Shown here: one piece after another, positions 5,867 through 25,361 of the stretch
Numbering within the stretch: the stretch's first letter is position 1
How the letters are laid out: each line of letters starts with the position of its first letter
Source of the DNA: a virus
Lineage: Duplodnaviria > Caudoviricetes
Virus record (IMG/VR): IMGVR_UViG_3300048998_000202
Direction: 5' to 3' (one strand)
DNA length: 64,000 nt
Notes under the pieces: model-generated
Told to the model about the DNA's origin: nothing
What the model saw: the letters and a program-made list of their open reading frames with translations, nothing else
The model's database searches: none
Program-made: the position numbers and the translations under genes

Positions 5867-6856
5867 TCACGCCTTGGTGATCGTCGCGATGCCCCTGGGG
5901 TTCAAAATGGACATATTGACCATTTCGTCAAATACCCATCCCTTCCAGAAGGCTTCGACCATGTGGTTCTCTTCCACGTCCAAACTGTACAGAACGGGGA
6001 AAACGCCCAAGAAGTTGGGCTCCGGGGTGAGGAAGACCTTGCCCTGCGGGACGATGATCGACCGCTGGATCTGGAACTCGCCGAACGAGGTGATGGTCTC
6101 GCCCGCGACGACCCGGTCCTTGAAGGCCCAGCCCGTCTGGTTGATGTCCCACCGGTACAGGTCCCGGAAGTCGAACGGGTTGATCAGGATCCGCGCCGAC
6201 TGGAGCTCGTGCATGTCCGTCATGGCGACGGCCGAGTACAGCGAGCCCGGCGTCAGGTAGCCCGACGCCTCGGTGATGTTGTGGTTCGGGGTGACCGTGT
6301 GGTCCGGGCGGGTGGCGTAGTCCGTCAGCGCCGCCTGGAGCAGTACGAGCAGCCGGGTGTCCTCCTGCTTGAGGATCGCCTGCTTGGTCTCGTCCTGGGC
6401 CTGCTCGACTGCGTTGATACGCAGGTAGAACAGGTCCTCCTTGCGGATCGCGGGGCGCGAGGCGATACGGAAGAACCGCACCGGAACGCGCTTGCCCTCG
6501 AACGGAGTCACACGGACTTCGCCCTCGGTGCCGGACATGATGTACGCCTGGCCCAGGTCGTCCCACACGTCGTACTCGACGGGGGTACCCGGGGTGACCG
6601 GGTCCTCCACGAGCACGTTGCGGGTGATGCCCTGGTAGCGGAGCTTGAGCTGGATGGGACCGACCATCCCGACGCCCAGACGGCGGATGCCGCCGGTCTC
6701 GTCGGAGAGGATCAGCGCCATCTTCTTGACCTTCGCCTCATGCGTGAGAGGCGCGGCCTTCTCCCGGCGGGCGAGGATCGCGGAGGCGTAGTCGTCGGAC
6801 TTCTTGGCCACACGGCCACGGAGCGACGAGGTTGCGGCGAGAGTCTGAGTCGGCAT
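5867..6856 (-). CDS. major capsid protein (HK97 fold)
   Basis: 329 aa with capsid-like sequence (GPIQLKLRYQGITRNVLVED, QAILKQEDTRL, C-terminal ILNPRGIATI). Follows scaffold and decoration genes. Confidence 0.85.
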   Translation of the reverse strand: MPTQTLAATSSLRGRVAKKSDDYASAILARREKAAPLTHEAKVKKMALILSDETGGIRRLGVGMVGPIQLKLRYQGITRNVLVEDPVTPGTPVEYDVWDDLGQAYIMSGTEGEVRVTPFEGKRVPVRFFRIASRPAIRKEDLFYLRINAVEQAQDETKQAILKQEDTRLLVLLQAALTDYATRPDHTVTPNHNITEASGYLTPGSLYSAVAMTDMHELQSARILINPFDFRDLYRWDINQTGWAFKDRVVAGETITSFGEFQIQRSIIVPQGKVFLTPEPNFLGVFPVLYSLDVEENHMVEAFWKGWVFDEMVNMSILNPRGIATITKA

Positions 6857-8571: not shown

Positions 8572-11500
8572 TCAGACAGGCATCGGCAGCGGCGTTTCGC
8601 CCTGCTCTTCGGCGGGGCTCATGAGCTGCCCCTGACCACAGTTGGGGCAGACGTCGCCCGCCTGGACTCCGTCGGGGGTGGCCTCTCCCGTCGGCGGCAG
8701 GATCGAGGTGTCCATGTCGACGCTCACCGGGTTGGTGGCGTCGGCCTGGAATCCGCACGCCGGACATTCGAGGTCCGGTACGCCATCGCCGGGGGTACCG
8801 GGGACTCCCTGGCCCGCGTCCGGGTTGGGGATCTGTCCGTCGGTGTCCAGGTCCTGAGGTCCGGCCGGGCCCTCGGGACCTGTCGGCTGGCCGGGTCCCT
8901 GGGGCGTGTCGGGCCCTGGGGTGAACGGCTGGCCGTCACTGCTGACCGCGTCGGCCGGGAGGGCCTGCGGTCCGATCGGCATTCCGTCGGGTCCGACCAT
9001 CATCTGCTGGCCGGGCTGCTGGAGCGGCTGTCCGTCGGGTCCGAGCATGGCCGGGTCGACTGGTGCCCCCAGCTCGTTCGGATCCTGCGGCTGGCCGTCC
9101 GGGCCGAGCGCGTTGGGATCCTGGGGCGAGTCTCCGCCCATCGGGTCGCCGCCCGGCTGTACCTCGGCCTGTACTTCACCGGGGAGTGTGCCGGGCTGCT
9201 GACCCTGGTCCGCAGCGTCGGGGTTGACGGGGTTGCCGTTCTCGTCCAGGGCCGCCGGGTCGGCCGGGTTTTCGACCGGCTGTCCGTCAGGTCCGATCTG
9301 ATTGGGGTTGGCCGGATCCTGGAACTCTGCGACGTCCTTCCGCAGGTCCATCTGTCGGGCCTTCTCCAGGTCGGGGTCCTGGAACATCTTGGGGGGTGCG
9401 ACGTAGCTGCACACCTGGCAGGTGGCGCCGTCGAAGGTGTCGCGGTCACCGCACACCGGGCAGGCGTCCTCGCGCAGGGTGTCCACGTCCTCGGGGGCCT
9501 TCGTCTCGCCGTAGGCCAGTTTGCGGCCCAGCAGGCGACGAGAATCCTCGGGGGGAGTAGCCCCCCGGCCCGTCTGGAGACCCTTGCCGTTCTCGGTGGC
9601 GAACGGGGAGTGCACCGGGGCTGGGTCGTAATGGGCCGCAGCGTGATCCAGCATGGCGGAGGCCACTCCTCGTCGCTTGAGGTTGTCGTCCACACCGATC
9701 CAGTTGATATGGCCAGCGGGCTTGACGTGCCAGGAGTCCGCGTGGCCATTCATGCCGCAGTGGTCGCAGTGCTGATCGGGCCGGAAGTCGTCAGGTCCCT
9801 TCTCGTCCCAGTACTCCTCGCGCTTCTTGGTCCACTCCAGCTTCCCGACCTGCTGCCTGTCGGGAGTGTGGGCGCGCAGCACGTGGTACTTGTAGTCCGG
9901 TCCACCGTGGTACGTGAAGTGCAGGCCCTCCGGCAGATCACCACTGGCCCCGGCCACATGGGAGTTCGCCGGGGGCTGGTGCAGGTCCGGATTGTGCTCG
10001 CGGCTGAGGTCCTGCCAGGTCTTGCGCTGGTTGCGCTGCACGGTGTTGCGGCCCTTCTGACCGCCTGAGGTGTCACCCTCGGCGTTCAGGCGCTGCCGGG
10101 CGAGCCAGGTGACGGCCTGCACCTCGTGCGGGGGCACTTCGCGGCCCTCACGGTCGGAGATGACCGCTGCGGCCTTGCGGTAGTGGTTGGCCACGACCTC
10201 GTAGTGCTTGCGGTTCTGCGAAGGGAAGCCCTTGACGTCGTCGGCGTTCAGACGGCGCCCGGCGGCGACGGACAGGGCATGACGATCCACGACGACCTTG
10301 TCCGAAGGCTCCTTGGGCTTTCCTGCCGCCGCGTCCTCAGGGCTCTGGGGCTTGTTACCGCCGTGCTCGATCAGGGAGGCGAAGTCCTGCGTCTTGGGCC
10401 CCTTGAGGGCTTCCTGGTGGTTCATGCCGTCCATGACCTTCTGGGCGGCGTTGGCGTGACTGCCCATCACCATGATGCCCTCGCCCTTGCCGACGGCCCG
10501 CTGCTCGTGGAAGGCCCGCGCGGCGTTGTGCTGGTTGGCCCACCAGCCCTGCTGCGGGGAGTAGGCGGAGAGGACGCCTGCGCCCTTGTGGGCGGCTTCG
10601 GCGTCGCTCTTGATGCGGGGATCCAGTTTGGCGATGGACTTGGCCACCAGGTGGGCGTCGGGGTACCAGCGTTTGCCCTGCGCCTTCTCCTCGCTGGTGG
10701 CCTGGTCCCAGTGGTCCACGACGTGGTGGTGGGACAGGCCCATCTCCTTGAACCACGGATGGTCCTCGGGTGGCGTGGCCGCCGCACCCTCGGCCATCAG
10801 ATCGGCCAGGGTGACGCGGGAGCCGGTGGCGGCAATCTGCCTCACCACGGAGTCCGGGATCTCCTCCGGAGTGGGGTACGACTTCGAACGCGCCCTGTGG
10901 GTGGTGACGAAGTGGCCGTCACCGTCCTGCTTGAGACCGACCTCGGCGAAACGCGGGTCCTTCTTGGCGGCCTCGAACATCCGGTCCTGGGCGTACCCGG
11001 AGCCCTCGGGAGTCTTCCCGGGGTCTTTGGCCTTGGGCGGCCAGTTGGTGGCGCGTGCCCCGTGATAGGGAGCCTTCTCGCCGTATTCATCCGGGGTGTC
11101 GGAGAGGGGGGACTTCGCCACGTAGGCGTGGATCTTCTTGATCCCTGCGGCCTTGGCCGCCTCGGTCCGGTGGTGGCCGTCGGCGACCTGGAAGACGCCG
11201 TGCCGGTGTACGAGGACGACCGGTGGCATCTGCTCGGGGTTGTCCCGGTACCCCTCGGCAGCGTGCTGGACGCGGTAGTCACCGGCCTCGTGGCGCTTGT
11301 GGTCGATGGCGCTCGGGCTGACCATCGCGTGATGGAAGGTCAGGTCATCGATCGAACGCTCGTTGGCGTCAGGGTCGTCGGGGGTGGAGTGGGCCAAGTT
11401 GCTGGCTGCCCATCCGATCATCTCCCCGTCGGCGTGCTCGGCCCGATCGCCGTGGATCTCGGGGTCCCCGTAGATCTCCGGGTGCCGCTCGCCTACCTCG

Positions 11501-12327
11501 TCCCAGGACAGGCCCCGCCCGGCAGTGGTGTTGATGGAGTCAAGACTTGCGGTACTCTGGATCTCGCTCGGCTCGGCTCGGATTGGCTTGGTTGGGCTTG
11601 GCACGGCAAGGTACGGCATGGCATGGGTGGCGGTCTCTCCGGAGGCCGCCACAGCCATTTTCATACCCCGGTCATCGATCCCGGTGAAAAACGCCGTCGG
11701 ATCCGCCGGGGGCTCCACCAGCAGCGAGTTCTCGAAAAACCGCAATCCGTAGCAGGTCTCACGGATGATCTCGCCGATCTTCTGCCCGGAAGCCGTCGTC
11801 CGGTAAAGCGTCATTCCCTTTGATCCAGGGATGTGGGCGCAGTATTCGGCAGGGGTAGTGGCCTTGTTGCCACAGGCGGAGCAGACGGAGAAGGCGACGT
11901 CGGTGCCCATGCTGGTTCTGGCGATGTTGCCGTTCATGATCTCGGCGGCCAGCTTGGGAAAGCGCAGCGCATCGACCTCTTGGAGGACCTCGACCCACCA
12001 GTCCCGGCTGCCGTCGCGGTTGCTGTCCTTGTGCAAAACCGCGTCGATGATCACACCACGGGCGCGCTTGTGATCTTCGTTCGCGTGATTGACGAAGACG
12101 GGCTTACCGATAAACGTCCGGTATCCCTTCTCCAGTTCCTCAGCGGGGAACTCGTCGAAGTTGTCGTTGCACCGGCTGGAGATGGCGCGGGAGCGCACGT
12201 ACAGGTAGCCGGGGCGCACCTCATACGAAAAGTGGTGCCGGTGGGCGAAGCGGCGCAGCTCACGGGCACCCGCGTCCGTGGGGACGAGGGCCTTGGTCAT
12301 GATCTGGGCGCTCGCGTACTTGAGCAT
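8572..12327 (-). CDS. multidomain head protein: prohead protease-like N-terminus + ParB/Srx-like + HhH-glycosylase-like + GNAT + Zn ribbons
   Basis: N-terminal GKPVFVNH..ARGVIIDA..TSMG..CSACGN..YCAHI..FFENSLLVEPPADPTA. ParB-like MPPVVLV..ADGHHR. WY..SAYSPQ..GPK..VVVDRHA..VQAVTW. GNAT RRGVASAML. Several CxxC pairs. Confidence 0.7.
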   Translation of the reverse strand: MLKYASAQIMTKALVPTDAGARELRRFAHRHHFSYEVRPGYLYVRSRAISSRCNDNFDEFPAEELEKGYRTFIGKPVFVNHANEDHKRARGVIIDAVLHKDSNRDGSRDWWVEVLQEVDALRFPKLAAEIMNGNIARTSMGTDVAFSVCSACGNKATTPAEYCAHIPGSKGMTLYRTTASGQKIGEIIRETCYGLRFFENSLLVEPPADPTAFFTGIDDRGMKMAVAASGETATHAMPYLAVPSPTKPIRAEPSEIQSTASLDSINTTAGRGLSWDEVGERHPEIYGDPEIHGDRAEHADGEMIGWAASNLAHSTPDDPDANERSIDDLTFHHAMVSPSAIDHKRHEAGDYRVQHAAEGYRDNPEQMPPVVLVHRHGVFQVADGHHRTEAAKAAGIKKIHAYVAKSPLSDTPDEYGEKAPYHGARATNWPPKAKDPGKTPEGSGYAQDRMFEAAKKDPRFAEVGLKQDGDGHFVTTHRARSKSYPTPEEIPDSVVRQIAATGSRVTLADLMAEGAAATPPEDHPWFKEMGLSHHHVVDHWDQATSEEKAQGKRWYPDAHLVAKSIAKLDPRIKSDAEAAHKGAGVLSAYSPQQGWWANQHNAARAFHEQRAVGKGEGIMVMGSHANAAQKVMDGMNHQEALKGPKTQDFASLIEHGGNKPQSPEDAAAGKPKEPSDKVVVDRHALSVAAGRRLNADDVKGFPSQNRKHYEVVANHYRKAAAVISDREGREVPPHEVQAVTWLARQRLNAEGDTSGGQKGRNTVQRNQRKTWQDLSREHNPDLHQPPANSHVAGASGDLPEGLHFTYHGGPDYKYHVLRAHTPDRQQVGKLEWTKKREEYWDEKGPDDFRPDQHCDHCGMNGHADSWHVKPAGHINWIGVDDNLKRRGVASAMLDHAAAHYDPAPVHSPFATENGKGLQTGRGATPPEDSRRLLGRKLAYGETKAPEDVDTLREDACPVCGDRDTFDGATCQVCSYVAPPKMFQDPDLEKARQMDLRKDVAEFQDPANPNQIGPDGQPVENPADPAALDENGNPVNPDAADQGQQPGTLPGEVQAEVQPGGDPMGGDSPQDPNALGPDGQPQDPNELGAPVDPAMLGPDGQPLQQPGQQMMVGPDGMPIGPQALPADAVSSDGQPFTPGPDTPQGPGQPTGPEGPAGPQDLDTDGQIPNPDAGQGVPGTPGDGVPDLECPACGFQADATNPVSVDMDTSILPPTGEATPDGVQAGDVCPNCGQGQLMSPAEEQGETPLPMPV
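11532..11652 (+). ncRNA. GGY-NN guide-like RNA unit J, antisense inside the protease gene
   Basis: TGATGGAGTCA box, leader caagacttgcgg, pentamers at 11570-11624 (one variant ggatt) and terminator GTGGCGGTCTC-tccg-GAGGCCGCCAC. Confidence 0.78.
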
Positions 12328-15713: not shown

Positions 15714-16112
15714 TTAGAGCATGGCGCGCAGGAGGGTGTTGAGGTCGGCCGGGGACAGGTCCTCCCCGTTGCCCAGGCGCTCGCGCAGCTCACTGACCTT
15801 GCGGTCGGTGTCGCTCATCCCGTAGTAGGGGTCGGGGGTGTGAGCAGTCACGACATCCTGTACGGCGTCCATGTCGGTGTCGCCGAGAATGTACAAGGCC
15901 CGGCCGCTGTCGTCACCGGTCAGTACGACCTGGTAGGCGTTGCGATCGCCGAGGTGGGCGTAGACCTCTTCGATGAGCTGGCGCTGGTGGACGTCTCCGG
16001 TGACCTCCAGGACCTGGGCGTGGCCGTCGAAGGGGATGTGGCCGTCCTGTGGCGGGACGAGCATGCCCTCGACGTCCTCTTCGACGGCGTCTTTGTCGAT
16101 GTTCACGGCCAT
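15714..16112 (-). CDS. hypothetical protein
   Basis: 132-aa acidic ORF overlapping the end of the 1875-aa gene. Confidence 0.6.
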
Positions 16113-19100
16113 GTCGGGTCCTCGTCTTCGTCAAGGGCGGCGTAATGGGTGTCGGCGATGTCGAGCCGGTCCAGGTTGGCGGCCTGCACGCTCGCGCCCT
16201 CGTTGATGATCGCAGCCTGCTCGTGGGGGCTGTAGTTCTTCAGCGCCAGCTTGGAGAGCATCGCACGGGCCTGGAGTGCGATCTCGGCCCCGTCTCCGGT
16301 GCCCCGTACGGGGCTTGAGGAGCCGTCAGAGGACAGGTAGGAGGCGTGGCTCTGGAACTGGGCGATGAGGTCCTCCAGGGACCCCACAGCGGCCGTACGG
16401 GGCGGGGTGAGGGATTCGTCGTCGGTCAGGTCCAGGCCGTCGCCGTCGGTGAAGGGCAGGGCGCCTTCGGGTTCCATGTGAAGGGTGGCCTCGGCGCCAG
16501 GGGTGAGCTCCTGGTGCTCGGGCATACCGGGGTGTCCCGGGGGCATGGCGCCGCCCTCCCCTCCCTTGGGGCCGGAGGGGCGGGGCGGTCCGAATCCCTC
16601 CCCGAGCATGGAGATCGCCTCCGAGGTCATCGGGACGTCCCTCAGGGCCCGCCAGTACGCCGTCACGCCGTTCTCCAGGGGGGTGTCCTCGGTGCCGGGG
16701 CTGGAGGCCAGGGGGTCGTCGGACTGGGCGATCTGCTGGGGGATGGACGCGATCCGGTCGCCCAGTTCGTTGGGGGTGATGGATCCCCAGTTGTCGGGGT
16801 CGGACTGGGAGGCCCAGCCGGTGGAGCCGGGGTTCTCGGCGAGGTTGCGGGGCTTGGTGGGACCCGGGGTGTAGTTCGGTGCGGCCGGAGTGGGCTCTCC
16901 CCAGGGGGAGTTGATCGCGGCCTCGTGGTGGGCGCCGTCAGGGAAGTCGTGCCGCACCCAGTCCCCGTTGCCGCGAGGGCGCCAGGAAACGCCCTTGAGG
17001 TGGACGGGAGCACCGGCTTTCAGAGGGACCTCGGCGTCGTCGTGGTCACCCATGGAGATGACGTCTTGTGCGACCAGTTCTTCGGGGTCGGTCTCGATGT
17101 GCTTCTTGGCCGGGGTGTGGGCGTGCAGCACCACATGGGTGTTGTTGTCACGACTGTCGCTGACGCCTGAGTAGTGGGCGGCCTGGTCCTTGTCCGGCGT
17201 CCAGTGCGTCCCGAGTCCCTGGTCCGAGAGATGCGTCGAGAGGGCCTGGGCTCGCTCCGCGACCGGCCGGGAATCGTCGTGCACCACGCTGTGCACGTCC
17301 GACGGCAAGTGGACCGCCATGCCCCGGTGCAGGGTGTCCCCCAGGCGTGGGTGGATGGAGTCCCAGTCGGTGTAGACGGACTCGTGGGCCCGCTTGGTCT
17401 CGCCGTCGGAGTGCTCACCGTCGTAGCAGTGCTTGTTGTGGCACTGGTAGACGGGATCGCCCCATTCGTCACGGTGGAAGCGAGACCCCTCCTCGTCCTC
17501 CTCATACTCCGGTTCGTGGTGGTCGGGTTCGTCTTGCTCTTGGGCTGCCGTCAGGCCGTGCATGCCCAGCAGGAACGCGAACTCCTCGGGGTCGTGACCC
17601 TGGGCGCGGGACCACTGGGCGAGCGCCACCAGCGGAGTGACCTCGATCTCCCGGGCAGAAGACCGCACCAGCTTGTTGTCGCCGGAATCGATGTCGTAGC
17701 GAAGGACGACCTTCTTCGGCACCCACTCCGGCTTGGCCGAGTCCTCGGTGACGTCCCTGCCGAACATCCCCCGGGACTGGGCCTCGTACTGGAGGGCCAG
17801 AGCGTGGGAGCACATGCGCCCGGCGAACCGCGAGAAGTCGTCGTTGGCGCCCCAGTGGTAAGCGCCCCACTTGCAGCCGCAGGTGTACGTGGCCACCGAG
17901 TGCCGGGAGCCGGGGAAGCGCTGTACCCCGGTCTCGTAGACATGGTGGTCCCCCTGGACCTCGCCGAAGACCACGCCGTCCGAGGCGAGGGTGATGCGGA
18001 CCTTGCCCTCGGAGCGGATGCGCTTGGCCTTGCGCTGGACATCGGCCCACGCCGAGGTGAAGTGGAACCGGAACTCGGGGTCGATTCCGGCTTCGGCGAT
18101 CAGCGCGTACGGATTGAACGCGGCCTTCTTGCGGCCGTTAGTCGGGCGCCCGTCCTCGTCCCACTCGGTGCCGTCGTCATAGGTACCGCCGGAGCCCGTC
18201 ATGGCGTCGGCGTCAGTAGACCCCTGAGAGATGATCTCCTCCTCCGGGGCCTCGTCGGCTATGTCGGCGAACGAGCCGTCCTGCTGGTTGGCCTGCTTAC
18301 GCTGCACCTTCGGGGGCTCGTAGTCCTCGTCCCCCGGGTCCCGGGCCAGGCGGTGCGGTTTGGCCCCGGGGAAGAACAGGTGCTTGTGGTCGATCCAGTC
18401 CCCGACGCGCTTGACGTTGTTCAACAGCGGCTCGCCATCGTGGCCCACCCCCACCATGTGACCCTGGACGAGGTGGCCCGTCTCCGAGGGCCGGTCATTG
18501 CCGTTGAACCTGTTTCTCTCGGCACGAGCAGCCCGACCCTGCATCTCCTCGTGGGTGTCATTGCCGTACTCGTCGTTGAAGGCGTCCATATTGCAGTTGT
18601 CGTCGCAGTACTCGTCGTGCTCGTGCCCACGGGAGTAGTTCGAATCCGGGTCCACGGGGTGTCCATGGTGGTCCAGGTCGTAGACGCTGACGCCGTCTTC
18701 CTTGGCCCCGGTGACATTGTTGGTGGACCGCTCGTCCGCGCGCCAGTCCCCGAAGCGAAGGTAGGTCGGCGAGGGTTCCGCCGCTCCCAGACGACGCTCG
18801 GCGGTGCCGTAGTCGTGCAGGTTCACCGCCCCGATGTGCAGAGCACCGTCGTCGGTGACCTTGTGCACGATGCGGTGACCCCGGGACGCCTTGGTGGCGT
18901 ACCAGCCCTTCAGCGGATGCCGCAGATCATGCGTCTGAAGGTTCGGGGCCCCAGCGGCCAGGGCGTCGATGGTGGCGCCGATCTGCTTCTGGGAGGGCTT
19001 GTCGAGCTTGCCCAGCTCCTTGGCGGCAGCCGGGTGGAAGGTTACAGGCCGAGATTCAGCCGGAGCTGCTCCCACTTCACCGGGGGCTCCTGGCTGTTCT

Positions 19101-21730
19101 CCCGCTCCTGCATCGTCTTGACCAGATCCGGGTCGGGTTCGAGGCTTCCCACGACCCGCAGTCCGTCCTCCGTCATGTACGCCATGGGGCTCGCCTCCGC
19201 TCTGCTCATCAAGTCCACCCTCCAGGGTACTCCAGGAATTGTTGGGGTGCAACGTCTCCACGAAGGCACCCTCGGCCGACATCTGCCCGTAGTGCGACCC
19301 GTCCACCAGGTGGTGGTGGGTGTACTGGCTCGGGTACGACGGCGGGTACTGGGTGTCCGGGTCGGCCGCGCCCTCGGCCCACGAGATGCCGTGGTGCAGG
19401 CCGCCGTTGCCCTCGTGGCCGTGCAGGATCACGTGCGTGGGCGGGTGCGGGTGCGCCCCCTGCTCGTGCAGGGCGTCCGCATCCACGTCCGCGTCGATCT
19501 CCGCGTCGGAGGGGTCCTCGTGGTCGTCGTTGAACAGGTGCGCGTTGCCGACCTTGGAGTACAGGTGCCGCGCCCGATCCACCATCGGCTTGGACTTGTC
19601 GTGGACGAAGGCGTGGTCCTCGGGGCTCAGGTGCACCGCCGCGCCCGTGTGGGTCTCCGGGGCGGGCTTGGGCTCCAGCAGGTGCACGCCCTGCGCCTGG
19701 TGCTCCTCCTGGAGGGCCTGGGCGTCGGAGTGCGAGACGTGCTCGCCCGAGGGCAGGTGGAAGTCCGCCTTCTTGATCGGCGGCCCGTGGTAGCCCTGCT
19801 CGTTCGGGTCGTTGTGGTCGGTCCACACGTGCTCGCCCGGCACGTGTGCGGTCAGCACCGGCCAGTCGTTCTCCGGGTCGTTGTCGTTCGCGGCGTGCTC
19901 GTGGGCGTAGTCGGGGCTGGTGGAGACCCAGTCGCCCTTGTTGATGTCGTGTATCCCGTGCGGGACGGCCCGGTAGATCTGGATGTGCCCGTGGTCCCCG
20001 AAGTGGCTGTGGCCCTCGTCCGGACCGGGCGCCTGGTGCATCATCGAGTACTCACCGGCCGTGACGTGGTGCGCCCAGGGGGCATCCGTCTCCCGGCCCT
20101 CGTGTCCCCACACCGGCTTGGACACCGCCGTCACCCCTGTGATGTGCACCGGAGCGCCCGTACGGACCGTGCGCTCCTGCTCGTGGCCACCGTCGAAGAT
20201 CTCGTGCTGATCAGCGTAGTCCTGCCACTCCGGAGTGCCGTGCTGCACGACGTGCTCGGGATCCACCCGGCCGTGCAGGATCACCCCGTGGGTGTGCGGG
20301 GTGGCGTCGTCCTCGTCCTCCTCGTGGGCCAGGGCGAAGTTGTGCGAGGTGTACGGGTCGGTGGACCAGTGGATGCCCGCCTCGTGCCCCCGGAAGCCCT
20401 TCTGGTTCAGGTAGCCGACCGGATCGGCGTGCAGGCGCTCCACGTCCTCGTCGCTGGCCAGCCCCAGGTTCAGCCCCCGGTGGACCTCCTCGCCGCCGAC
20501 GGAGCCGTGGACCGTACGTCCCTTCTGCACAGTCTTGCCCCGGGTGTAGCTGTCCCACCACGCCTTGCCGTCGTTCGTACGCTCGCCGTGGTCGATCGCG
20601 TGGGGGTGACGACGCTGCATCTCATCCATGAGTGCGGACGCGACCCCCTTGCCCCGGTGCGCCTCGGCAGTGTCGAGACCCTCCACCCGGACCTTCTGGT
20701 TCTTCTTGAACGGCACCAGGTAGGTCAGCGTGCCCATGTGCTCGCCGGTCTCCGGGTGCAGCGCGTGGAGCTTGACCCTGTCGTCGAAGGTGCTGCCGCC
20801 ATAGTCGGCGGTATCGGCAGTGAAGGTCGGCTGCACCTTCTCGGCCGCCGCGTATTTGGCTACACTCGCAGTACCCCGAAGAAAGGCGCTGTCGTGGCCC
20901 GCTCCCCCATGCCCATCCTCGAACGCTTCCTGAGCCACGTCGATGCGTCGCCTGATCCCGAAACCTGCGACATGTGGAACGCCCGGACGAACCGCCTCGG
21001 GTACGGCCAGTTCTGGGACGGCACCTACACCGCCTCCGAACGCCCCCGGATGGTCGATGCCCACCGATGGATCTACCTCCACACCCATGGACCCACGCGC
21101 CTGCATGTACGCCACACGTGCGACATACGCGCCTGCGTCAAGCTCGGGCATCTCATATCCGGCACCCAAGCCGACAACATGCGAGACCGCGACTCCCGAG
21201 GCCGGGGCGTCGTACCCGACATGCGGGGTTTCGCCCGAGGCCACGGCACCAAACTCACCGCTGAGCAGGTGCTGGAGATTCGCACTCGCGCCACCGGCCA
21301 GTGGGGAGAACAGCGCCGCCTCGCCCGGGAGTTCGGAGTGGGTCATCAGACCATCAGCGCGATCCTCTCCGGAAGGCGCTGGGCGGAGTGATCCCATGTG
21401 GACGGGCAGCGCGATGTCGGGCCTGTCGCGCAGTACGTCCGTGAGTTCTTCGTAGTCCTCAGAGGCCAGATGCCCCCCTGCCGCCTGCCGGGTGCCAGTG
21501 GAGTACGGAGAGAGCTGTGAAGGCCCGTACAGGCCCCGTCCAGCCCCACCGTCCAGGATGACGTCATACTCCTCCCCCAAGGCCGGGGAGTAAGTGACCT
21601 CCTCCACCCGCCCGGGGATCCCGTCAACCGTCATCACCCGCTGACCTTGGGAGTACTCGGTGGGGTAGTCCCCCGCCGCCATGCGCGACAGCGCGGTGTC
21701 GTGTGCGCTTTCGCGGCGTCCCAGCCCCAT
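16103..21730 (-). CDS. giant virion cargo/effector polyprotein (GNAT, three ADP-ribosyltransferase-like modules, RelE-like domain, SWIM Zn finger)
   Basis: [19 protein letters not shown]-like HRG..GIHWSTD..EQE, IYRAVP..GDWVSTS..EQGY and LHRG..GTHWT..DAEV. RelE-like [33 protein letters not shown]. Late promoter at 21750-21784. Confidence 0.7.
19042..19209 (-). CDS. overprinted antitoxin-like peptide (55 aa) in an alternative frame of the polyprotein
   Basis: Own TTGCAC/TACCCT promoter with operator (19224-19252) and GGAGG RBS. C-terminus [12 protein letters not shown] ends at the start of the RelE-like domain. Confidence 0.7.
20894..21391 (+). CDS. HNH homing endonuclease nested antisense in the polyprotein gene
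   Basis: [40 protein letters not shown], followed by [29 protein letters not shown] and TACACT -10 upstream. Start may be ATG 20909. Confidence 0.85.
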
Positions 21731-21791
21731 GCGTCCTCCTACCGATCCTCACACCTTCCCGGCACTGGACGTGACTAGGACAGCAGCGCCC

Positions 21792-23186
21792 TCAACCCAC
21801 ACGACCGCCGACGTTGGCGTGACGGACCACGGTATTACTGGCGCTGGCCGCGCTCCACTGCCACGTGATCACCAGATCGTTCGAAATCGTGGTGTTGAAC
21901 GTTGACGTCGCCGTGGGAAAGATGATCTGGTTCGCCCCGATCGAGCCGACAACGGTCAGCGTCTGGTTCTGCCAGAAGGCATTCGTGCACGTGCCCGATC
22001 CCCCGGTCGTCAAGCATACGAAATCGGCCTCCGCGATCACGCCCTTGTTCGCCACGTTGGACGAAGTGACGGTCGGGCCCATCGTCGACAGAAGTGTCCC
22101 GGCGATTCCCCCCAGATACAGCCGCAGCGTGTAGGAGGGAGTACCCGTGACAGAACCCCGCAGCAACGTCCTCATGTGGTAGACGGCGCCTGCCGTCGCG
22201 TCGTTCGCAGGAATCGTCAACGTGGCCACCACCGTCTCCGTGATGGAGTTGCTGATGGTCTGCATCGACGCAGGAGACGGCACAGTGAACTGCCGGATCT
22301 GAGTGGCGAGGACCTTACTGTCCGTATCCAACGTGGCCACCCCGGAAGCGACCGCGAGCTGACTGGTGGGGACGGCATTGATATTCGCAGGAGTGACCGA
22401 AACAACGCCCTGCGACCCGTTGACCGACGTGACCCCAGCATGAACGTGATCACCCCGCGCCGCGCTGTTCGTCGCACCGGCCGCATTGGCCGACCCGATG
22501 GCCACGATGGTGCCGGTAGAGCTGTAGAGCTGCTGGGCGCCGTTGAGCTTGCTGGCGCCGTCCAGCCCCGGCACACCACCCGAAGCGTTCTTCGAGGCGC
22601 TCGCAATATACAGAGTGGTCAGATCCGGAATCTGCGACAGAGGGATCTTGGTACTGCCGTCCAGAGAGGCGACGCCACTGGCCGCCGCCTTCTGGGTCAC
22701 CGCCACGTACATACTGCTCAGGTCCGGAATCTGGGCAGTAGGCACCTTCGTGGAACCGTCCAGAGAGGCGACGCCGCTCGCTGCCGCCTTCTGGGTCGTC
22801 GCGATGTACGTCGCCGATAGATCCGGGATGCGGGCCGTGCCGAAGGTCCCCGAGGAGACCTGGGACGCCGGGAGGGGCGGCACCTGGGCCACGGGGACCA
22901 GCGTGCCGGAGTCCAGGGATGCCACCCCATTGGCCGCCGCCCGGGACGTCTTGGCGACATAAGTGGCATCGGTGAAGATCTGGTCCACCGCGCCGACGGT
23001 GCTCGCGTCCAGTTCGACGTTCCCGATCAGTCCGTTGACGGAGGTGACGCCCTCTACGATCGTCGAAGGCAGCTCCGAGGACGGGATCTTCCCGTCCGAT
23101 CCGAGACTGGCCACACCGCTCGCCGCACCGATCTGGGCGGAAGTAACGAAATCCGATGTGTCGTCCACCGTCAGGTGCTTAGGCAT
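21792..23186 (-). CDS. tail fiber/minor virion protein with internal repeats
   Basis: Repeats of KAAASGVASLDGSTK(V/I)P..QIPDL and GVTSVNG..G.V motifs. Confidence 0.75.
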   Translation of the reverse strand: MPKHLTVDDTSDFVTSAQIGAASGVASLGSDGKIPSSELPSTIVEGVTSVNGLIGNVELDASTVGAVDQIFTDATYVAKTSRAAANGVASLDSGTLVPVAQVPPLPASQVSSGTFGTARIPDLSATYIATTQKAAASGVASLDGSTKVPTAQIPDLSSMYVAVTQKAAASGVASLDGSTKIPLSQIPDLTTLYIASASKNASGGVPGLDGASKLNGAQQLYSSTGTIVAIGSANAAGATNSAARGDHVHAGVTSVNGSQGVVSVTPANINAVPTSQLAVASGVATLDTDSKVLATQIRQFTVPSPASMQTISNSITETVVATLTIPANDATAGAVYHMRTLLRGSVTGTPSYTLRLYLGGIAGTLLSTMGPTVTSSNVANKGVIAEADFVCLTTGGSGTCTNAFWQNQTLTVVGSIGANQIIFPTATSTFNTTISNDLVITWQWSAASASNTVVRHANVGGRVG

Positions 23187-23246: not shown

Positions 23247-25361
23247 TCAGACCTCCTGAAGTCCGGAGGCGTAGAACGTCTCGGGGTCGACCTCGATGTG
23301 GCGGCGTACGCCGACCACCTTGGGGTCGGCGAACTTGCCGATGGGGTCCCACTCGCTCAGCGGCACGTCCTCGGGACGCTCGCGCGGCTGGTGATGCTGG
23401 CGGGCGGCCGTACGGGTGCGTTCGGACTGCCGGAAGAGTGCGGCGGGCTTGGGCATCCCCGCGCGCATCTCGTCGGACTCGGGCGGGCGCTGGCTGCCCT
23501 CTGCGGGGGCCTCACCGCCGGTCTCGGTGCCGTCCACGGGGGTGGCGGGCATGCCGGGCATGGGGACGCCTCCGGCGGGCTGGTCGCCCATGAGGTCCAT
23601 CTGGGTGGGGGCGAGGTTGGGGGTGGGGACGACGTCATCGGTGCCGAGCATGGGGGCGCGCATGCCCTCCATGGCGGGGTTGGCGGGAGCCATGGCCTGC
23701 TGGGCTTGGGGCTGGAAGTCCGTCTTGAGGTCGAGGGGGATGGGCAGGCCCTTGTCCTTGAGGCCCTGGTAGATCTTTTTGCGGGTCTCCTGCTCGGCGA
23801 TGGCGAGCTGGACCTGTTCGTCCTGGGTGCGTTCCACCTCGTCGTCGAAGTCGATGCCGGAGGCGGTGAGGCGGGTCTTCATCGAGACGGGGACGCCTGC
23901 GGCACGCAGGGCCTCGAAGAACTCGCGTTCGGCGGACTCGTCGGTGAGGGACATGGTCTGCATGACCAGCTCGGGGACGAGGAGCTTGGGCTGCTCTACG
24001 ATGCGCTCGTTGCCGGTCTCCTCGTCGATTTCGAGGATCTCTTCCATCTTGACGTAGCGCTTGCCGTTGCGTTCGTCGTAGTCGTAGTGCTCCTGGGCTT
24101 CGGCGACGACCAGGGCGCGCTGGTGGAAGTGGCGCTTGATCATGTCCTGGTAGGTGGTGAGGAGCTGGGAGACCAGGTCGCGGTTGAGGGCGTCGGCGGC
24201 GTAGGTCTCGCCGGAGGAGGCGCCGTTGAGCATGGTCTGGGACAGGCCGAAGGACTGGAGTATGCGATCTTCCAGGCGTTCGAAGTCGGCCGTCATGTCG
24301 GGCATGTTCTCCCGGCCGAAGACGGGTTCCATGGTGACGGCGAAGTTGTGGACGAGGGCGCGGAAGTCGGCGGCGAGGGCGGCGTCCAGGGACTCCATGA
24401 ACTCTTCGAGGTCGTCCGGGGTGGGGATCCAGGGGACCTGGGTGCCGAGGTCGGTGGCGGAGGCGCCGAGTTTGACCAGGACCAGAGGGGTGTAGAGGCG
24501 GTCGGCGATGGCGTCCTGGGCGGCGTTGAGCATCTCTTCCTGCATGACGGCTCGCATGGCGCGCATGAGGATGGGGATGCCGCGTTTGGAGAAGGTGTCG
24601 GCCTTGAACTTCATCTGGCGGAGCAGGATGTTGCTGACGGGCATCATGTCGTCGGCCCCGGCGTAGCGGCTGAGCTCGGGGTAGACCTGCATGAGCTTCT
24701 CGTACTCCCAGGCGGGGGAGCGCTTTTGCATGACCTCGCGGATCGTCTCCGGGAGGCGTATGAGGAAGCGGGGGTCCTTGAGGAAGGCGCTGCGCTGGAC
24801 CATGACGTCGTCGGGGTTGAGGAGTTCTTCGTCGTCCCAGATGCCCAGGGACTCGTTGAAGGTGGCGAAGGGCCATGCTTCGCCGACGGTCCAGTATTCG
24901 CGGCCGACGTCGAGGAGGAATTCGTCGTAGTTGAGGCCGTCTTCGGTGAAGAAGAGGTCTTCGTAGAACTGGGTGACCTGTTCGTCCTTGCAGCGCAGTT
25001 CCATGCCGAGCAGGGGGTACTTGGTGTAGATGTCGATGCATGAGGCGATGACGGGGTGGGTCTGGTAGAGCAGGCGGCAGTAGGTGCGGAGTTGCCGGAG
25101 CTGGGATTCGTCGTCGACCTCGTAGGGGAGGTTGTTCTGCTTCCAGTAGAACAGCGGGTCGCGGGGGCGGCCGGTGGCGAAGGCGGTGCTGGGGGTGGCT
25201 GCGGATCCTTGCTTGCGCATGGAGACGCGGCGGTTGGCCTTCATCTGCTGGGCTTCTGGGGTGCCGTCGGTTTGTGCTGTTGCCCCTCGGGTCATGGCCT
25301 TGCCGAGGCGCGCGAAGGCGGCCTGCTGGTAGGCGTCGGGCTCGGAGGGGGTGTCAGGCAC
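23247..25361 (-). CDS. portal protein
   Basis: 704 aa with portal-like helical segments (CRLLYQTHPVIASCIDIYTKYPL; EYWTVGEAWPF; RGIPILMRA; YTPLVLVKLG). Upstream of the head genes. Confidence 0.75.
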   Translation of the reverse strand: MPDTPSEPDAYQQAAFARLGKAMTRGATAQTDGTPEAQQMKANRRVSMRKQGSAATPSTAFATGRPRDPLFYWKQNNLPYEVDDESQLRQLRTYCRLLYQTHPVIASCIDIYTKYPLLGMELRCKDEQVTQFYEDLFFTEDGLNYDEFLLDVGREYWTVGEAWPFATFNESLGIWDDEELLNPDDVMVQRSAFLKDPRFLIRLPETIREVMQKRSPAWEYEKLMQVYPELSRYAGADDMMPVSNILLRQMKFKADTFSKRGIPILMRAMRAVMQEEMLNAAQDAIADRLYTPLVLVKLGASATDLGTQVPWIPTPDDLEEFMESLDAALAADFRALVHNFAVTMEPVFGRENMPDMTADFERLEDRILQSFGLSQTMLNGASSGETYAADALNRDLVSQLLTTYQDMIKRHFHQRALVVAEAQEHYDYDERNGKRYVKMEEILEIDEETGNERIVEQPKLLVPELVMQTMSLTDESAEREFFEALRAAGVPVSMKTRLTASGIDFDDEVERTQDEQVQLAIAEQETRKKIYQGLKDKGLPIPLDLKTDFQPQAQQAMAPANPAMEGMRAPMLGTDDVVPTPNLAPTQMDLMGDQPAGGVPMPGMPATPVDGTETGGEAPAEGSQRPPESDEMRAGMPKPAALFRQSERTRTAARQHHQPRERPEDVPLSEWDPIGKFADPKVVGVRRHIEVDPETFYASGLQEV

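Follow-up and report, generated by a model that had tools for sequence, protein, structure and literature searches.

The toxins of type II toxin-antitoxin pairs such as YefM-YoeB and RelB-RelE are bound by the C-termini of their antitoxins, YefM and RelB. The YoeB residues E46, R65, H83 and Y84 are catalytic residues of ribosome-dependent ribonucleases (RNases). A pair of this kind appears to be nested inside a large phage gene in IMG/VR virus record IMGVR_UViG_3300048998_000202 (Duplodnaviria; Caudoviricetes), of which a stretch of 64,000 nucleotides, here called the window, was analyzed. On the minus strand of the window, the gene for a multi-module (polyvalent) protein of 1875 amino acids (16103-21730) includes an internal domain with the predicted RelE/YoeB fold, and a candidate antitoxin gene of 47 codons, in the +1 frame relative to the large gene, ends where that domain begins. 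Based on sequence comparison and structure modeling, we place at roughly 0.72 the probability that a genuine antitoxin-toxin pair, maintained by selection, is nested in the polyvalent protein gene.

The locus resembles YefM-YoeB and RelB-RelE in several ways: the antitoxin gene lies directly upstream, stop and start overlap by 4 nucleotides, the toxin has the RelE/YoeB fold, and the C-terminal half of the antitoxin is its conserved part. It differs in that the toxin is internal to the 1875-residue protein and has lost its own start codon instead of being a separate small polypeptide. It also differs in its antitoxin, which is only 41-63 residues long among the loci compared, has no DNA-binding domain, belongs to no curated family, and is written in the second frame of the toxin-bearing gene.

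Genes nested in other genes have a well-known example in phage lambda, where Rz1 is embedded in Rz in the +1 frame and this pair of lysis partners arose together. The present locus is similar, as the smaller gene has start signals of its own and is entirely contained, at a +1 offset, within the larger one, and the two products are expected to cooperate. Unlike Rz1, the inner antitoxin would represent the older coding frame, which the outer frame reads as a linker. RelE/ParE-fold domains are also found embedded in larger fusion proteins, but those fusions carry the antitoxin as an in-frame domain, whereas here it is hidden in another frame.

Polyvalent proteins are large multi-domain proteins of phages and conjugative elements that include PBECR (RelE-fold) RNase domains, and their packaging and injection have been proposed (Iyer et al. 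2017, PMC5512222). The passages of PMC5512222 that a term search picks out tie no immunity or antitoxin gene to these RNase domains. The 1875-residue protein is likewise encoded among virion genes, and GNAT, ADP-ribosyltransferase-like, ParB-like and RNase-fold modules shuffle between its orthologues. In contrast to the PBECR case, its RNase-fold module is a true relative of the RelE/YoeB toxins of toxin-antitoxin pairs, and its cognate antitoxin gene lies within the large gene in the +1 frame. A further difference is that a Pfam scan detects no zincin processing-peptidase domain in the 1875-residue protein.

In the MuF polymorphic toxins of temperate phages, a C-terminal toxin is followed by a separate downstream immunity gene (Jamet et al. 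2017, PMC5576092). Both systems pair a phage head-associated protein bearing a variable toxin domain with a cognate protective gene. Here, Pfam and PHROG scans detect no MuF family, the toxin occupies an internal position, and its protective gene is upstream and overlaps out of frame. A survey of RelE/ParE toxins from 2025 put to one side the multidomain proteins without an identifiable antitoxin (PMC11980606), and nothing of the nested antitoxin-toxin kind was found in the literature on out-of-frame or overlapping phage antitoxins. The nested cassette thus combines three known kinds of element: type II toxin-antitoxin pairs, polyvalent proteins, and embedded overlapping genes.

The toxin-like domain and the small gene in the second frame

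The toxin-like domain (18788-19045, minus strand) comprises residues 896-981 of the 1875-residue protein and begins at a GTA codon (VTFHP...). It matches positions 1-82 of the 89 in the Pfam ParE_toxin profile with an E value of 2.7e-3, and phrog_1213 with an E value of 5e-6. These similarities remain under curated cut-offs, at 18.7 bits versus the required 23 for Pfam ParE_toxin and far below threshold for the NCBIfam models RelE_StbE, YafQ and Txe_YoeB. An AlphaFold2 model of the domain (predicted local distance difference test score, pLDDT, 87.6) has the topology H-H-E-E-E-E-H, with the two N-terminal helices and four-stranded sheet of the RelE/YoeB fold. In Foldseek comparisons, the model matches YoeB, RelE, YafQ and RelK with template modeling (TM) scores of 0.70-0.76, all at a probability of 1.0. 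The top match is the YoeB structure 6l8e (TM 0.74), and the best PDB matches are 6l8e, 2a6r and 3oei. Similarly, a profile built from nine homologues matches Staphylococcus aureus YoeB in the PDB with an E value of 3e-5, a relationship that is significant but distant.

The nine homologues share 29 invariant columns, including H39, R58, H77 and Y79. In the HMMER alignment, R58 falls on the HR of YoeB, and the equivalence of H39, H77 and Y79 to YoeB E46, H83 and Y84 is by eye only. Sequence and model together indicate a divergent member of the RelE/YoeB branch that belongs to no named family. A first-pass annotation of this DNA had labeled the domain RelE/ParE-like; the RelE-type fold stands, but ParE does not, since both Foldseek and the PDB profile place the domain nearest to the YoeB/RelE RNases. 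In a variant of the cassette, four relatives (P0061, P0062, P0064 and P0066) have a tandem pair of RelE-like domains, with two matched stretches each.

The antitoxin-like gene (19042-19185, minus strand; 47 codons plus TAA) was delineated from GC periodicity and homology. It opens with MAYMTEDG... at ATG 19185, and a Shine-Dalgarno sequence, GGAGG (19194-19198, minus strand), lies 8 nucleotides before this codon. Its stop codon (TAA, 19044-19042) overlaps the first codon of the toxin domain (GTA, 19045-19043) to give GTAA, in agreement with the first-pass proposal that the open reading frame (ORF) stops where the toxin domain starts and that the two stand in antitoxin-toxin order. The out-of-frame ORF had been given as 55 residues long. 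The ORF itself is upheld, but a 47-residue product from ATG 19185 is likelier than a start at ATG 19209, because only the former has GGAGG 8 nucleotides upstream and the latter is without standard Shine-Dalgarno spacing, and because stop codons close the upstream extension in a close relative (L039) that keeps the MAY start.

Codon-position GC content also points to coding in the second frame. Over 19210-19045, it is 0.68/0.42/0.90 in the frame of the small ORF versus 0.90/0.68/0.42 in the main frame. The former is the normal gene signature of this genome and therefore indicates coding in the small-ORF frame over this interval. In sliding windows, main-frame GC content at third positions (GC3) is 0.82-1.0 on either side of the cassette. 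An upstream gene that ends by frameshifting into the small ORF was considered and rejected, as the small ORF has its own Shine-Dalgarno sequence and ATG and main-frame GC3 is normal on both sides.

DNA of high GC content yields long spurious frames, of which a 1405-residue ORF on the opposite strand is an example, so the 1875-codon frame might be a fusion caused by an assembly or indel error, with the upstream gene, antitoxin and toxin truly separate. Such an artefact is highly improbable. Four close relatives from separate metagenomes (the window, L029, L039 and L040) share the layout and the same continuous main frame, as do many distant relatives; orthologues share both ends of the protein; and the GC3 of the main frame is that of a gene on each side of the cassette.

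A sigma-70-like promoter with an operator-like spacer (19224-19252, minus strand) precedes the small gene. It consists of TTGCAC (19252-19247), 17 nucleotides, and TACCCT (19229-19224), and 25 nucleotides separate TACCCT from GGAGG. A generic promoter scan of 16000-22000 returns nothing, and the promoter is recognized only through comparison with a motif repeated in the window itself, TTGACn-CTCCAA(GG/CA)AT(T)CCT(T/G)GGAG-TAGnGT. Eighteen minus-strand sites have at most 10 mismatches to the 30-mer consensus of this family, versus 0.27 expected on both strands, and membership in the family supports the internal promoter that had been proposed. With this, all of the elements listed at first pass (promoter, GGAGG, alternative-frame ORF and toxin domain) are present where they had been placed. 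The other family sites precede small genes, with a leader of ~37 nucleotides, GGAGG and ATGGCG, and the same layout follows 19253-19224. The family suggests many single-gene transcription units under one operator-binding regulator. Its spacer element is common to 17 other promoters of the window and hence not specific to the cassette. Examples of promoters with the palindromic spacer, TTGACn-CTCCAAGGATTCCTGGAG-TAGnGT, are at 63536-63507, 61441-61412, 60504-60475, 54821-54792, 51526-51497, 51040-51011 and 15709-15680.

Free-standing and fused relatives

A word-index search of 5.8 billion proteins, limited to those of 47-151 residues, gives one match to the toxin domain. This protein, P0002, has 98 residues and is 58% identical over 100% of the domain (E value 3e-24). 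Upstream of it lies a 41-codon gene (P0003) whose product ends PVPWETVKDHLGL and whose TGA overlaps the GTG start codon of the toxin in the sequence GTGA. The best match of P0003 in the entire window is 19128-19045, within the small antitoxin-like gene. The contigs with P0002 carry the same promoter motif downstream of the toxin and are therefore from a related phage. Compared with this free-standing pair, the GTAA junction of the window retains the antitoxin stop and has lost the start codon of the toxin.

Fused forms are much more common. An exhaustive HMMER search of 1.84 billion cluster representatives yields 88 matches to the toxin domain, 62 of them below 1e-10. Most are domains in proteins of 500-3300 residues, at N-terminal, internal or C-terminal positions, and few are small proteins. 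DNA was read for 17 loci. Besides the window and the free-standing pair (L024), these comprise 15 further fused forms, drawn from metagenomes, IMG/VR and two Streptomyces records. A +1-frame ORF of 41-63 codons, with a Shine-Dalgarno-like site 5-10 nucleotides before its ATG, lies directly upstream of the domain in 15 of the 17, and in 14 the small ORF ends P-x-x-W-E-x-(V/I/L)-x-x-x-L-G-L. The exceptions are L028, with a variant end, L038, in which the stop is lost, and L030, which is deviant. The stop codon either overlaps the first codon of the toxin (as GTAA, GTGA or CTGA) or lies 14-17 nucleotides upstream, and the overlap seen in the window recurs in 8 other loci. Among the 16 fused forms, 12 begin the toxin with GTA, GTC or GCC, none of which is a start codon. 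The toxins of these loci are as little as ~58% identical.

The antitoxin itself forms a small family of its own. A profile search recovers 18 database clusters of 41-63 residues, all unnamed or annotated "hypothetical protein", one of them on a 152-kilobase Streptomyces albidoflavus contig. The family alignment (A2) has 13 members, and conservation is concentrated in the C-terminal half. This alignment matches no Pfam family and no meaningful PDB chain, and an Atlas look-up gives only sub-threshold leads to antitoxin-like clusters.

The cassette also appears in more than one host frame. In three IMG/VR relatives, it lies ~50-80 kilobases from the orthologue of the 1875-codon gene, in another long open frame, and is therefore mobile among polyvalent proteins. 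The four close relatives are similar from the promoter onward and differ in their upstream modules, so the promoter is part of the cassette. The promoter motif is also seen before the antitoxin ATG in L029 (with a weak −35 element), L039, L032, L033 and L026. The first-pass annotation had proposed in-frame capture of a toxin-antitoxin module. The free-standing homologous pair and the nested layout in diverged relatives agree with capture, but not with a single event, as the arrangement is recurrent and portable.

Constraint on both frames and a proposed explanation

Patterns of variation suggest that the two frames are constrained in different parts of the small gene. Across the 13 C-terminal antitoxin codons in 13 loci, nucleotide diversity at the three alternative-frame positions is 0.34/0.17/0.28. 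The least variable site (0.17) is main-frame position 3, the opposite of what coding in the main frame only would predict. Replacements between the window and L029 are also more conservative in the alternative frame, with a mean BLOSUM62 score of +0.24 versus −0.84 in the main frame.

These patterns bear on the idea that the small ORF is an untranslated remnant of an antitoxin gene, and that the toxin is inactive or made harmless in some other way, for example by the context of the large protein. The deviant small ORFs of L030 and L038 and the lack of a match to any curated family would fit such a relic. We regard it as very unlikely, since 15 of 17 loci retain the Shine-Dalgarno sequence, the ATG, the length, the C-terminal motif and the position of the stop despite the divergence of the toxins, main-frame third positions are the most constrained in the C-terminal block, and GC3 in the alternative frame is 0.90. 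Moreover, among the genes of this phage a +1 frame is open across 55 codons in just 38% of windows of that length.

The main frame is constrained elsewhere. The motif RTAGRGKPR (residues 856-864; 19139-19165, minus strand) overlaps antitoxin codons 8-16. In 11 codons around R-x-A-G-R-G-(K/R)-P-R-R in 13 loci, diversity by main-frame position is 0.20/0.26/0.60, and amino acid identity is 0.71 in the main frame versus 0.30 in the alternative frame. Alignment A3 shows no variation at the A, G, G, P and R of the AG(R/K)GKPR motif. This motif is found upstream of 36 representative toxin domains, distant ones included, and is missing from the free-standing pair (L024) and from the fused form L031. 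It stands ~35-70 residues before the toxin domain in the window and at equivalent sites of L026-L040. Its conservation as a by-product of the antitoxin frame was rejected: the alternative-frame residues are unrelated between lineages (GLRVVGSLE versus EPQDEDGHA), whereas the main-frame sequence does not vary.

Read in the main frame, the antitoxin gene is rich in Gly, Ala, Pro and Arg and is predicted to be disordered (AlphaFold pLDDT <52), beside a toxin domain of pLDDT 84-92. Across the antitoxin gene, the main frame thus appears to be translated and selected as well, and this DNA is best read as encoding a predicted disordered linker that has acquired the conserved AG(R/K)GKPR motif. A processing site or an AT-hook-like nucleic acid contact are guesses as to what the motif does. 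Judged by its pattern of variation, the small gene behaves as an embedded gene, with the alternative frame constrained at the C-terminal block and the main frame at AG(R/K)GKPR.

The explanation proposed here is a portable, self-immunized effector cassette that would comprise the promoter, the leader, the Shine-Dalgarno sequence, the 47-codon antitoxin gene and the YoeB/RelE-like toxin domain. The ancestral GTG of the toxin is now GTA, and from that codon the toxin would therefore be made only within the larger protein. The peptide would be made from late mRNA and from a short transcript that starts at the internal host-type promoter. Its conserved C-terminal half may bind and block the toxin, as the C-termini of YefM and RelB do, so that late translation in the producer cell would be protected. 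The large protein may then be packaged and delivered with the DNA, as suggested by the position of its gene and by the polyvalent protein hypothesis (PMC5512222), and its RNase domain would act on the translation of the host or of a competitor until the incoming genome supplies fresh antitoxin. For delivery and early timing, we see about even odds.

Several points weigh against this explanation. The loci compared are related and are not independent trials. Amino acid identity in the C-terminal block is 0.54 in the alternative frame versus 0.47 in the main frame, a modest gap. Pfam and a PDB search with the alignment give the peptide no DNA-binding domain and no known antitoxin family. The hexamers of the internal promoter (TTGCAC and TACCCT) fall short of the family consensus in strength, and in L027 and L034-L037 the antitoxin ATG is not preceded by an evident promoter of this type. 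A main frame open across the small gene is unremarkable by itself, since 62% of 55-codon windows in the genes of this phage are open in the −1 relative frame by chance. Lastly, the 1875-codon gene also reads through an antisense gene and is thus tolerant of foreign inserts. That gene encodes an HNH endonuclease of 160 residues (20909-21391, plus strand; Pfam HNH_3, E value 3e-6; phrog_59, E value 2e-21). It lies within the large ORF across residues 114-274, a segment missing from all orthologues. Over this segment, main-frame GC3 drops to 0.55-0.65 and GC content at position 1 climbs to 0.8-0.93, and the large frame stays open. In a scan of both large genes of the region, the toxin cassette and the antisense HNH gene are the only places where GC periodicity flips.

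The main rival builds on such tolerance. It holds that the cassette is a selfish insert, a toxin-antitoxin "moron" that brought its own promoter into a disordered linker able to tolerate it and survived only because the frame, by luck, stayed open. The insert would still be an addiction or exclusion module of a phage-plasmid, its toxin would be made from an internal GTG codon, and fusion to a virion protein would be incidental. The chance openness of the −1 frame and the HNH gene both fit this alternative, as does the existence of relatives that are Streptomyces plasmids of 151-154 kilobases, where an addiction module would be useful. The GTG in question (19073-19075, minus strand; residue 886 of the main frame) overlaps the Trp codon of the antitoxin, and it is possible that it could act as an internal start for a toxin-first product. 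Some homologues are called toxin-first from the equivalent codon, with a separate upstream antitoxin (P0035 in L032, P0019, P0023, P0028 and P0029). In addition, the cassette is in none of the 22 orthologous large genes first fetched. We nevertheless judge a selfish insert unlikely. Fused forms far exceed free-standing ones and occur at either end or in the interior of proteins from at least three lineages; AG(R/K)GKPR is under main-frame constraint and is not found in the free-standing L024 or in the fused L031; the toxin's own start codon is gone in most fused forms; and the putative catalytic residues are invariant in the fused context.

If the nested pair is a self-immunized effector, a phage could build an enzyme that poisons translation into a structural or cargo protein and still spare its own late protein synthesis, as the antidote would be encoded in another frame with its own signals. 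A hidden-frame antitoxin may also account for multidomain RelE/ParE toxins that seem to have no antidote (PMC11980606). The locus would add a well-supported example of DNA that codes in two frames, each under selection, and it defines a small, previously unannotated antitoxin family whose 18 clusters are all "hypothetical". A change that leaves the main-frame protein unaltered is enough to abolish the antitoxin start, which would allow clean genetic tests.

A broader generalization is that ~140 nucleotides encode two selected products, that the promoter, Shine-Dalgarno sequence, +1-frame antitoxin and toxin form a plug-in that can be inserted in frame anywhere in injected polyproteins, that the off-frame reading of the antitoxin gene now serves as a functional linker, and that polyvalent effectors routinely hide immunity genes in this way. 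We hold this tentatively, at somewhat less than an even chance. Should immunity genes routinely lie in alternative frames, this would explain "orphan" multidomain RelE/ParE toxins and provide a general search rule for unannotated immunity genes.

The host gene, its neighbors and its relatives

The window is tailed-phage DNA of ~66% GC content, with nearly all genes on the minus strand. The 1875-codon gene belongs to the head module, where it follows the portal gene (23247-25361) and comes before the head-protease and capsid genes. Its neighbors include the gene for the major head protein (5867-6856) and that for a protease-fusion protein of 1251 residues (8572-12327, minus strand). The latter is a second large multi-module protein, with a head-maturation-protease-like region, a ParB-like region and other modules.

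Pfam and PHROG profile scans of the 1875-residue protein find GNAT, ParB-C-like, RelE-like (residues 896-970) and phrog_30974/2940 modules. Residues 1225-1319 match PHROG families without an assigned function, and a SWIM-type zinc-finger motif can be recognized by eye. Twenty-two IMG/VR relatives, mostly contigs of ~155 kilobases, have an orthologous gene of 534-1722 codons. These orthologues share with the 1875-residue protein the first ~120 residues, the module at 1200-1400 and the last ~270 residues, and their middles vary. The protein therefore has the hallmarks of a polyvalent protein: unrelated modules, shuffling among orthologues, and a gene located among virion and late genes. In a phage collection of 50,697 records, neither nucleotide nor protein searches, for which the gene and the toxin domain were the queries, find a close relative. 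Only the 1200-1320 module is matched there, in large mycobacteriophages.

The portal gene has 75% nucleotide identity to the 154-kilobase circular plasmid pRLB1-9.1 of Streptomyces sp. RLB1-9, and one cassette-bearing locus is on a 151-kilobase plasmid of Streptomyces sp. cg35. The family therefore consists of ~150-kilobase Streptomyces phages or phage-plasmids. The close relatives NZ_CP041653.1 (L041) and NZ_CP191269.1 (L037) are circular Streptomyces plasmids of 151-154 kilobases with nearly all genes annotated as hypothetical, and they are probably phage-plasmids.

Other members of the gene family carry different insertions and modules. The orthologue P0036 has an intein-like insert, recognized by eye, within the SWIM-type zinc-finger motif (..ATYTC / FLPD ... 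VHN / CGCKWG..), which would be another mobile element inside the family of the 1875-codon gene. In L012, residues ~350-470, which correspond to residues ~820-1140 of the window protein, contain by eye an Arr-type ADP-ribosyltransferase-like module in place of the toxin cassette. Pfam Arr-ms is on record for P0005, P0006 and P0016. The L012 module is flanked by the same linker motifs as the window cassette, one of them ..ANQQDGGF.., and the difference between the two loci suggests exchange of modules slot by slot.

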